Source: Escherichia phage vB_EcoM_PTE-Eco15. From it: a DNA stretch of 64,000 bases. Below the pieces are notes generated by a model. That model was not told the origin of the DNA and did no database searches. It saw nothing but the letters and a program-made list of their open reading frames with translations. Shown piece after piece: positions 12,049 to 13,105 of this stretch (the stretch's first letter is position 1; each line of letters begins with the position of its first letter). The stretch lies in the sequence record PQ352352.2; one strand, written 5' to 3'. The translations under genes and the position numbers were made by a program.

Positions 12049-12072
12049 TTTCAAAAATTTTTTCACAAAACT

Positions 12073-12136
12073 GTTTACAAGCATAAAGCTTTATGGTACT
12101 ATACAACTATCAACTAATACGGATTTGGAGAATAAA
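12073..12136 (+). promoter_or_regulatory. Early promoter plus conserved leader (repeated promoter-leader module)
   Basis: ctgtttacaag...tggtactatacaactatcaactac...ggagaataaaATG; the same module occurs at 14208, 39649 and, degenerate, at 59255. Confidence 0.6.
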
Positions 12137-13105
12137 ATGAAAACTGTAACTATCAATAAGGGTATCTACTTCGGTAAAGAAATCTCTGGAACTTTTGAGC
12201 TCTTAGGTGAATGGTTCCCAGATAATGCTCCGGTAGATGCACAAGGAGATGGTAAAGTTTTTGTTGAAATTGACGGTAAGCGTCGCGGTGTTTGGGTTTA
12301 CAAATCAGACATTTCATATGATGGTGTAAAAGTTGAAGAAGTTAAAGAATCATATGAAGATATGAAAACCCGCATTAATAAAAGATTTAATGTTATGGGA
12401 ATGATGACGAATGGTATTATTAACGGAAACATTCGTTCATTAATTATCTCTGGTGCGGCAGGTATTGGTAAAACGTATTCTTTAGATAAAGCTTTGAATA
12501 AAGCAAATGATATTGGATACATTGAGTATAAAAGCATTAATGGTAAAATCTCTGGTATCGGTCTTTATGAACAGCTTTGGAATAATCGTGAAGAGAATTC
12601 TGTCCTTTTGATTGATGATGTGGATGTTTTCTCTGATATGGACATTCTTAATCTTCTAAAAGCTGCTCTGGACACTGGAGAGACCCGTAAAGTCTGCTGG
12701 AGCACTGCATCTTCTTACTTAGAAGAAAAAGGCATTGAGCGTGAGTTTGAATTTAAAGGAACGATTGTTTTTATCACAAACGTTGATATTGACCGCGAAT
12801 TAGATCGTGGTACTAAACTTGCTCCACATTTACAAGCATTAGTTTCCCGCTCAGTTTATTTAGATTTGGGTGTTCACACTAATGAAGAAATTATGGTCAG
12901 GGTTGAAGATGTTATTCTTTCAACTGACATGATGCAAAAGCGCGGTCTTTCTGATGAAGAAACTTATAAAGCATTATCATGGATGAAAGTCAATGTTAAT
13001 CGTTTACGCAATGTTTCACTGCGTACTGCTCTTTATCTTGCTGACTTTATTATGACCGACAAAAACCATTGGGAAGAAATTGCTGAAACGGTATTATTAA
13101 AATGA
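12137..13105 (+). CDS. P-loop NTPase (AAA-like ATPase)
   Basis: Walker A ISGAAGIGKTY and Walker B VLLIDDVD; 322 aa. Confidence 0.7.
   Translation: MKTVTINKGIYFGKEISGTFELLGEWFPDNAPVDAQGDGKVFVEIDGKRRGVWVYKSDISYDGVKVEEVKESYEDMKTRINKRFNVMGMMTNGIINGNIRSLIISGAAGIGKTYSLDKALNKANDIGYIEYKSINGKISGIGLYEQLWNNREENSVLLIDDVDVFSDMDILNLLKAALDTGETRKVCWSTASSYLEEKGIEREFEFKGTIVFITNVDIDRELDRGTKLAPHLQALVSRSVYLDLGVHTNEEIMVRVEDVILSTDMMQKRGLSDEETYKALSWMKVNVNRLRNVSLRTALYLADFIMTDKNHWEEIAETVLLK

Follow-up and report, generated by a model that had tools for sequence, protein, structure and literature searches.

Repeated early promoter-leader modules in Escherichia phage vB_EcoM_PTE-Eco15 and their probable use as cassette boundaries

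Four copies of a promoter-leader module

The DNA considered here is a stretch of 64,000 nucleotides (nt) from Escherichia phage vB_EcoM_PTE-Eco15 (sequence record PQ352352.2), called 'the window' in what follows. By its sequence the window is Tequatrovirus DNA: it follows the T4 reverse strand co-linearly, from about 66.6 kb down to 1.2 kb, in blocks of 92-99% identity with indels between them. Its + strand genes are thus the early and middle genes of T4, from e/ipIII through rIIA. Within it lie four copies of a module of some 60-95 bp each—a promoter followed by a short leader—which a first-pass annotation had likened to the promoter early-stem-loop (PeSL) elements of T4-type phages. We name these c1 (near 12050), c2 (14205), c3 (39630) and c4 (59255), by window position; all four were found where that annotation had put them. 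Over 4 kb around the site first annotated (12050-12140), the window matches many Tequatrovirus genomes, those of RB32, T6 and F26, for example, at 98% identity.

The first copy, c1, lies between nrdC.11 and nrdC.10, and c2 lies between nrdC.9 and nrdC.8. The third follows gene 43 and precedes an open reading frame (ORF) of 78 amino acids (aa) and then imm.1. The fourth follows motB and precedes a 4-codon remnant and then cef. Each copy had been said to precede a gene of unknown function, and this holds for the downstream proteins with the exception of Cef, which stands behind c4 beyond the pseudogene remnant. Between nrdC.10 and nrdC.9 the window also has an ORF of 239 aa (13102-13821) that relatives annotate as a site-specific intron-like (seg-type) DNA endonuclease. 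It occupies an insertion of about 730 bp, absent from T4, that is not at a module boundary.

The full plan of the module, read 5' to 3', is an UP element, GTTTACA, a 17-bp spacer, TGgTACTAT, ACAACT, a predicted +1 A, TCAACTAC, a leader, a Shine-Dalgarno (SD) sequence and ATG. The start region, ACAACTATCAACTAC, is invariant among the copies; the leader occupies 22-37 nt before the SD and ATG, and these are present at the 3' end of all four. The promoter core reads TTTACA-N17-TACTAT in c1, c2 and c3, and TATACA-N17-TACTAT in c4. An A/T-rich, UP-like tract lies upstream of the -35 in c1, c3 and c4 and is missing from c2. In c1 and c3 this tract is an exact UP element, AAAAATTTTTTCACAAAACT, which fits the consensus AAAWWTWTTTTNNNAAA at every specified position and is placed 4 nt before TTTACA, with no mismatches when TTTACA itself is counted; c4 has two. 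The consensus is reportedly that of Estrem et al. 1998. The sequence features of T4-type early promoters—GTTTAC, an extended TGn -10 and an A/T-rich UP region—are thus all present in the module.

The second copy is the shortest, about 60 bp from -35 to ATG, with a different SD (GGAGGAACACAAAATGAAC) and without the shared UP region. It begins at its -35 because the DNA upstream is coding: it overlaps the last codons and the stop of nrdC.9. The fourth had been called degenerate, which is true of its -35 (ATATACA) and its spacer but not of the rest. The first-pass annotation had also placed a terminator hairpin before every copy, and here it was mistaken. A hairpin is found only at c1, where it is adjacent, and at c3, where it is some 68 nt upstream; the terminator scan returned no terminator-like hairpin before c2 or c4.

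Table 1. Positions of the module parts and of the features next to them, by copy (window coordinates)
Feature	Position	Strand	Basis
c1 hairpin AGGGAGCCTTCGGGGCTCCCT with T-run, predicted intrinsic terminator of nrdC.11 (the PeSL stem-loop)	hairpin 12023-12043; feature 12023..12049	+	terminator scan
c1 UP element AAAAATTTTTTCACAAAACT	12053..12072	+	exact consensus match
c1 core promoter: GTTTACA -35, 17-bp spacer, TGg-TACTAT extended -10 (12094-12102)	12073..12102	+	
c1 spacer palindrome CATAAAGCTTTATG, perfect, 14 bp, between -35 and -10	12082-12095	+	
c1 start region ACAACT-A-TCAACTA (predicted +1 A at 12109, by spacing only), leader, nrdC.10 ATG (12137-12139)	12103..12139	+	
c1 SD and predicted RegB site GGAGAATAAAA	12127-12137	+	
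nrdC.9 stop codon, upstream of c2	14204-14206	+	
c2: GTTTACA (14209-14215), spacer, TGg-TACTAT (14230-14238), start region ACAACTATCAACTAC	14209..14269	+	
c2 SD GGAGG; nrdC.8 ATG	14254-14258; 14267-14269	+	
c3 hairpin AGGGACCTCCAGGTCCCT with T-run, predicted terminator downstream of gene 43 (DNA polymerase)	hairpin 39544-39561; feature 39544..39566	+	
c3: UP element (39629-39648), GTTTACA (39649-39655), TGg-TACTAT (39670-39678), predicted +1 (39685)	39629..39718	+	
c3 SD and predicted RegB site GGAGAATAAAA; ATG of 78-aa accessory ORF	39706-39716; 39716-39718	+	
78-aa ORF, cassette gene predicted to be driven by c3, unknown function (phrog_4189)	39716..39952	+	
c4: near-consensus UP element (59255-59274), degenerate -35 ATATACA (59275-59281), TGg-TACTAT (59296-59304)	59255..59350	+	
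c4 spacer, 12 nt, TCAGTAGTTGAT (59282-59293), reverse complement of start region ATCAACTACTGA (59311-59322)	59282-59293; 59311-59322	+	
c4 SD and predicted RegB site GGAGAATAAAA; ATG	59338-59348; 59348-59350	+	
Remnant of 89-aa ORF, predicted to be driven by c4: ATGGAAATTCGCTAA plus out-of-frame 3' end; cef at 59422	59348..59421	+	alignment

Two of the copies have symmetries of their own. The spacer palindrome of c1 is identical in T4, UTI-E4, KMB22, ACG-C40 and G3F7. At c4, the spacer and the start region pair in a 13-bp stem around the -10; folded as RNA, it reaches -20.2 kcal/mol (z = -6.9), and the arrangement (59282-59322, between motB and cef) is kept in T4, T2, KFS-EC3 and Sf23. A covariation check was made, and the orthologues are mostly more than 95% identical, so they offer little variation. 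The repeat could be a stem-loop for transcripts that read through from motB, an operator, or the scar of a strand switch. The short sequence GCATAAAG of the c1 spacer recurs at the 5' edge of c4 (59247-59254).

Identity among the copies, and the leader

How far the copies resemble one another beyond the promoter consensus was judged by ungapped alignment, over 82 columns, of 19 early-type promoters in the window (GTTTAC-like -35, 17-bp spacer, TAnnnT): the four copies and 15 others. Across all pairs of these promoters, 37.4 columns are alike on average, and random draws from the column frequencies lead one to expect about 40 shared columns per pair. Pairs within the four-copy family share 46-59. 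The best are c1/c3 (59 of 82 columns, with a longest exact run of 29 nt), c3/c4 (58 columns, 17 nt) and c2/c3 (57 columns, 24 nt). Against these stands a null in which sequences were shuffled so as to keep the composition of each alignment column, and the best of all pairs was scored; its 99th percentile is 53 columns, and 19 nt for the longest run. The pair scores and runs that lie above this null show an identity greater than generic promoter consensus, which is what the first-pass annotation had claimed and had proposed to check by such an alignment.

Searches with individual blocks agree. The 24-mer TGGTACTATACAACTATCAACTAC occurs at 12094, 14230, 39670 and 59296, with 1, 0, 0 and 3 mismatches, respectively, and these are its only matches in the window when up to 3 mismatches are allowed, versus none expected (100 shuffles). 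The upstream 26-mer AAAATTTTTTCACAAAACTGTTTACA has three matches, at 12054, 39630 and 59256, and again none are expected in shuffles; and TTGGAGAATAAAATG is exact at three sites, 12125, 39704 and 59336. Identity had been said to extend through the SD into the first codons, Met-Lys. This is so for c1 and c3 (ATGAAA in both), and for c4 as far as the ATG but not the lysine (ATGGAA); c2, with its other SD, does not take part.

The blocks are distributed among the copies as a mosaic. The UP element and the SD are common to c1 and c3, whereas the spacer is common to c2 and c3, at 14 of 17 positions (82%) against a mean of 39% over all promoter pairs. The leader block ACTGATACAGA is common to c3 and c4; leader blocks are shared, too, by c3, c4 and the copies that T4 has upstream of e.8 and ndd.6, and the e.8 copy and c3 have a spacer block in common. 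The first two copies are direct repeats 2.1 kb apart, with the blocks GTTTACAAG and TGGTACTATACAACTATCAACTA.

T4 has all four modules at orthologous positions, and at least three further tight copies, upstream of e.8, motA and ndd.6. The family noted as four is four in the window, then, but larger beyond it, with at least seven tight members in T4. In six of these seven the TGGTACTATACAACTATCAACTAC block is identical; the cef copy differs at 3 positions. Blastn finds modules at 8-9 places per Tequatrovirus genome, and an exact-match scan of IMG/VR for the 24-mer finds 12 stretches in 5 contigs. More distant is a Mosigvirus orthologue of c2, in which the -35 (GTTTACAAG), the -10 and CTATCAACTAC are kept, the spacer is scrambled and the SD is different. 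Since this orthologue keeps the start region in spite of its scrambled spacer, the start region is under selection and not merely recently copied.

Other promoters in the window are repeated as well. One pair, at 8170-8260 and 50243-50333, consists of the terminator CTCCTTCGGGAG followed by TTTTTCATTTTACCGGTTTACTTTCC; its members are alike in 61 of 82 columns, with an exact run of 26 nt, and correspond to T4 positions upstream of mobD.5 and mrh.2. We take it for a putative second PeSL-like subfamily. Another pair, at 17186-17215 and 62762-62791, upstream of the nrdC.4 and rIIA.1 orthologues, has near-identical cores, GTTTACTTTRCCACAAGGATGTGGTATAAT (97%), between unrelated flanks.

That the module is a promoter with a leader—UP element, GTTTACA, 17-bp spacer, TGn-TACTAT, and a short leader with SD and ATG—agrees with the annotations of relatives: the fPS-65 record labels the c3 orthologue 'predicted early promoter', and X75802, from the T4 ndd region, marks a promoter, with its -35 and -10, where its sequence matches the module. 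It is predicted to be a T4-type early promoter, active with the host polymerase immediately after infection.

The leader, for its part, has a concrete functional reading, because its SD is an exact optimal site for RegB. In c1, c3 and c4 the SD, GGAGAATAAAA, stands directly before the start codon and is the 11-nt sequence GGAGAAUAAAA, which in T4 is reported to be the best site for the endoribonuclease RegB acting with ribosomal protein S1 (Durand et al. 2006, PMC1702504). The degenerate form of the site, GGAGRAYARAA, has three matches in the 64 kb, versus 0.41 expected, and all three are these SDs; RegB probably cleaves them in this phage too. The c2 site, GGAGGAACACA, departs from the 11-nt site at positions 7, 8 and 10, and the SD of T4 nrdC.8, its orthologue, is moderately cleaved by RegB (PMC1702504). 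The region of the regB homologue in the window is co-linear with T4 62.3-62.7 kb. A riboregulator was considered for the leaders and rejected: folded as RNA, the leaders of the four copies have no structure beyond that of shuffles (z from -0.1 to +0.7). A scan of the whole window against Rfam returned no family at threshold.

Cassette junctions at the four loci

The case for recombination rests on comparing many genomes at single loci, for which all four were surveyed across GenBank phages, and not on the breakpoints between the window and T4. At c1, the interval from nrdC.11 to nrdC.10 holds one to three additional ORFs in UTI-E4, G3F7, KMB22 and ACG-C40. Their homology with the window spans the terminator, UP element, -35, spacer and -10 as far as ...ACTATCAA, and it resumes at TTGGAGAATAAAATGAAAACTG. 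The inserted ORFs lie between the start region (...ACTATCAA) and TTGGAGAATAAAATG, with the junctions inside the module, and a second early promoter is present at the end of each insert. In ACG-C40, 621 bp of this slot lie between 54-nt direct repeats (terminator, UP element and -35; 85% identical, 38 nt exact) and encode a ModB-like ADP-ribosyltransferase (L025 600-1085)—to all appearance a clean, PeSL-bounded cassette that carries a host-takeover enzyme. The same phage has a two-ORF cassette of 479 bp between direct repeats of 52 nt (73%) that run from the -10 to the ATG. In the UTI-E4 and G3F7 inserts the leader, ATCAAAACAAACACTTAAACGGAAAAACAAAATG (L023 555-590), is similar to that of ipIII in the window, ATCAAAACAAACAAGGAAACAAAAATG (1203-1240), which suggests that leaders, too, fall into a few recurring types.

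Three alleles occupy the c3 locus, with junctions after ATCAACTAC or at ATGAAAAT, both inside the module. Most relatives have the 78-aa ORF; the class with this allele comprises 316 records in which a single place accounts for at least 80% of the query. T2, RB51, RB27 and ECO78 have an unrelated ORF of 83 aa instead, and in ECO78 the identity with the window stops exactly after ...ATCAACTAC, beyond which the leader is GGAGGAACACAAAATG; a leader of the c2 type goes with this T2-type allele. T4, T6 and RB32 are empty, with the junction at ATGAAAAT. At c4, an intact ORF of 89 aa follows the module in T2, KFS-EC3 and Sf23. The window and T4 have lost about 209 bp from its interior, right after the ATG, leaving a frameshifted remnant. 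In KFS-EC3 and Sf23 one more gene precedes the module, and it is at the module's 5' edge that the homology with the window sets in again. The suggestion that the modules are plausible recombination substrates marking the boundaries of insertions and deletions is borne out, in these comparisons with relatives, at three of the four loci, c1, c3 and c4.

The internal-protein locus, at window positions 1-1850, is rearranged too. Here e is followed by a 98-aa ORF (its listed start codon is TTG), a denV-like gene (77% to T4), an 86-aa ORF (MKMYQEFIAEA...) and then ipIII; in T4 the order is e, ipIII, ipII, denV. Two breakpoints of the alignment, 425 and 1226, lie within early promoters (437 and 1178). 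We take this to be the known T-even polymorphism of the locus, and the shared N-termini to resemble a capsid targeting sequence.

Interpretation and known systems

We put the probability at roughly 0.85 that the four copies are paralogous, composite immediate-early expression signals of T-even phages that also serve as crossover points of the PeSL type. As a promoter, the module would be of the 'uber' kind for host sigma-70 polymerase, in which the UP element binds the alpha C-terminal domains and GTTTACA, the 17-bp spacer and the extended -10 do the rest. Host RNA polymerase would fire it immediately after infection, with no need of phage proteins, and the short, open leader would be translated efficiently until RegB, a few minutes later, cuts inside the SD and inactivates the message. 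Strong early firing followed by this cut would give the accessory gene downstream a strong but brief burst of expression. As a crossover point, the module would supply blocks of 20-50 nt, which are found as direct repeats between many of the small genes that the phage can do without. Homologous recombination, which is efficient in this phage, could act on these blocks, and cassettes with a promoter and a terminator of their own might be inserted, deleted or exchanged with their neighbors left undisturbed. Evolution by cassette exchange is a pattern seen when genomes are compared; its mechanism we infer. The mosaic of UP, spacer and leader blocks among the copies would then be the trace of such exchanges.

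A number of observations pull the other way. The c2 locus has no indel polymorphism among the GenBank phages compared, and the c4 deletion appears to be mediated by microhomology (ATGgAAAA / ATGtAAAA) rather than by crossover between modules. Breakpoints between the window and T4 are not enriched in the 19 early promoter modules (3 of 36, P = 0.18 versus random placement), and most of the differences between the two are insertions, those of homing endonucleases among them. Intergenic DNA, moreover, is where insertions are mainly tolerated, and selection alone should therefore bring some junctions together with promoters; flanking direct repeats are a stronger argument than the intergenic position of a junction. 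Nor is there any sign that the copies are being homogenized at present, since orthologous modules are about 97% alike and paralogues 57-72%; concerted evolution by gene conversion between copies was rejected on these figures. As to the promoters themselves, the +1 positions are predictions from the spacing, and the T4 records NC_000866 and AF158101 annotate no promoter features that might support an experimental early-promoter status.

Some of these points would suit a rival account, in which independent promoters have converged on the T4 early-promoter consensus, with neither common descent nor a role in recombination. Much of what the copies share is functional (UP consensus, -35, TGn/-10, RegB/S1 site), many other early promoters in the window have a.a..tATCaa.ta after the -10, and the Mosigvirus orthologue keeps exactly the functional blocks while its spacer is scrambled; the lack of breakpoint enrichment fits as well. 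We consider convergence unlikely all the same. Pair identity and exact runs exceed what column composition yields, positions with no known function are also alike (the c2/c3 and e.8-c3 spacers, the c3/c4 leader block), and cassettes in other genomes are bounded by direct repeats of module blocks. Another rival makes the module an autonomous mobile element that spreads copies of itself through the genome, in the manner of a MITE or as the site on which a homing endonuclease or a dedicated site-specific recombinase acts. There are 8-9 places per genome, insertions resembling cassettes adjoin the module, the interval from c1 to c2 includes a seg-type endonuclease gene, and a dedicated recombinase has been raised as a possibility (Arbiol et al., PMC2839356). 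However, no module boundary coincides with the endonuclease insertion, and the junctions fall at varying points within the homology, as general homologous recombination predicts. In the sequences read or aligned there are no target-site duplications and no terminal inverted repeats, the internal one of c4 aside. All copies have the same orientation to transcription, at orthologous positions conserved in T4 and the relatives examined. Transposon-like mobility was rejected, as terminal repeats, target-site duplications and variable locations are all wanting, and we consider an element of this kind extremely unlikely.

The tight subfamily could also be a distinct regulon, in which the block from -10 to +15, TGGTACTATACAACTATCAACTAC, and the c1 and c4 palindromes act as an operator or RNA element for shut-off or for modulation by Alt/ModA. 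The near-uniformity of the block in the tight T4 copies and its retention in the Mosigvirus orthologue speak for this, as do the perfect 14-bp spacer palindrome of c1 and the 12-bp inverted repeat around the -10 of c4, and the mechanism by which T4 early promoters are shut off is described as unknown (PMC2988021). The case for a factor, however, is one of sequence conservation only, which selection for open-complex formation and promoter escape explains equally well, and c1 and c4 have unrelated palindromes, with no counterpart in c2 or c3. On balance this reading is very unlikely. The particular proposal that a phage or host factor recognizes the block and so times an immediate-early regulon (motA, the imm.1 slot, the ndd region, nrdC.8/10, e.8 and cef), for early-promoter shut-off, for example, with the c1 and c4 inverted repeats as copy-specific operators, is quite unlikely, too, if somewhat less so. 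Composite early signals that double as crossover points remain the reading that we prefer.

The modules are present in T4 itself and the PeSL class is published, so the finding is one already known and of little weight as a discovery. Modular shuffling by promoter-terminator cassettes in T4-type phages has likewise been published. The use is in annotation: the modules mark immediate-early transcription units and the genes predicted to be under RegB control in this phage, and they point to slots for the exchange of accessory genes among Tequatroviruses, namely nrdC.11/nrdC.10, gene 43/imm.1 and motB/cef.

Among known systems, the morons of lambdoid phages and the cassettes of integrons are similar in that small accessory genes with their own expression signals are placed between conserved genes. 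Integrons differ: they have an integrase and attC sites, whereas here the homology comes from the repeated promoter and nothing points to a dedicated recombinase. With the RegB/S1 sites the likeness is closer—the SDs of c1, c3 and c4 have the exact 11-nt T4 consensus, predicted to be single-stranded, directly before the AUG—with the difference that cleavage has been reported for the T4 sites and is deduced for these. T4 early promoters have GTTTAC at -36 to -31, TGn plus a -10, and an A/T-rich UP region, with further positions conserved that the host consensus does not include, in the 'uber' UP/-35/TGn/-10 design (Hinton 2010, PMC2988021; Nolan et al. 2006, PMC1524935). The modules have this design, at orthologous T4 positions, and differ from it in nothing essential; they are a tight subfamily with blocks beyond the consensus, in which c4 lacks a good -35.

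The closest resemblance is to the PeSLs, as the first-pass annotation proposed. Those reported for the PST/T4 pair have the consensus TTTACW-N17-TAYWAT (Comeau, Arbiol & Krisch 2014, PMC4122927), which fits all of the copies save for the -35 of c4, and 'degraded' or half PeSLs are also described by the same authors (PMC4122927). The modules differ in that a stem-loop is adjacent only at c1, lies some 68 nt upstream at c3 and is missing at c2 and c4, and in that c2 overlaps the 3' end of a coding sequence. Mini-circles, the circular products of PeSL excision, have been demonstrated for RB49/phi1 only (Arbiol et al. 2010, PMC2839356). In other respects the two correspond: both are intergenic composites of about 100 bp, in which an AT-rich tract, a sigma-70-type -35 and -10 with a 17-bp spacer, an SD and an ATG follow one another, in PeSLs after a stem-loop terminator; both occur in many copies per genome between small accessory ORFs; and both are associated, among close relatives, with indels and replacements whose crossovers fall between the -10 and the SD/ATG.

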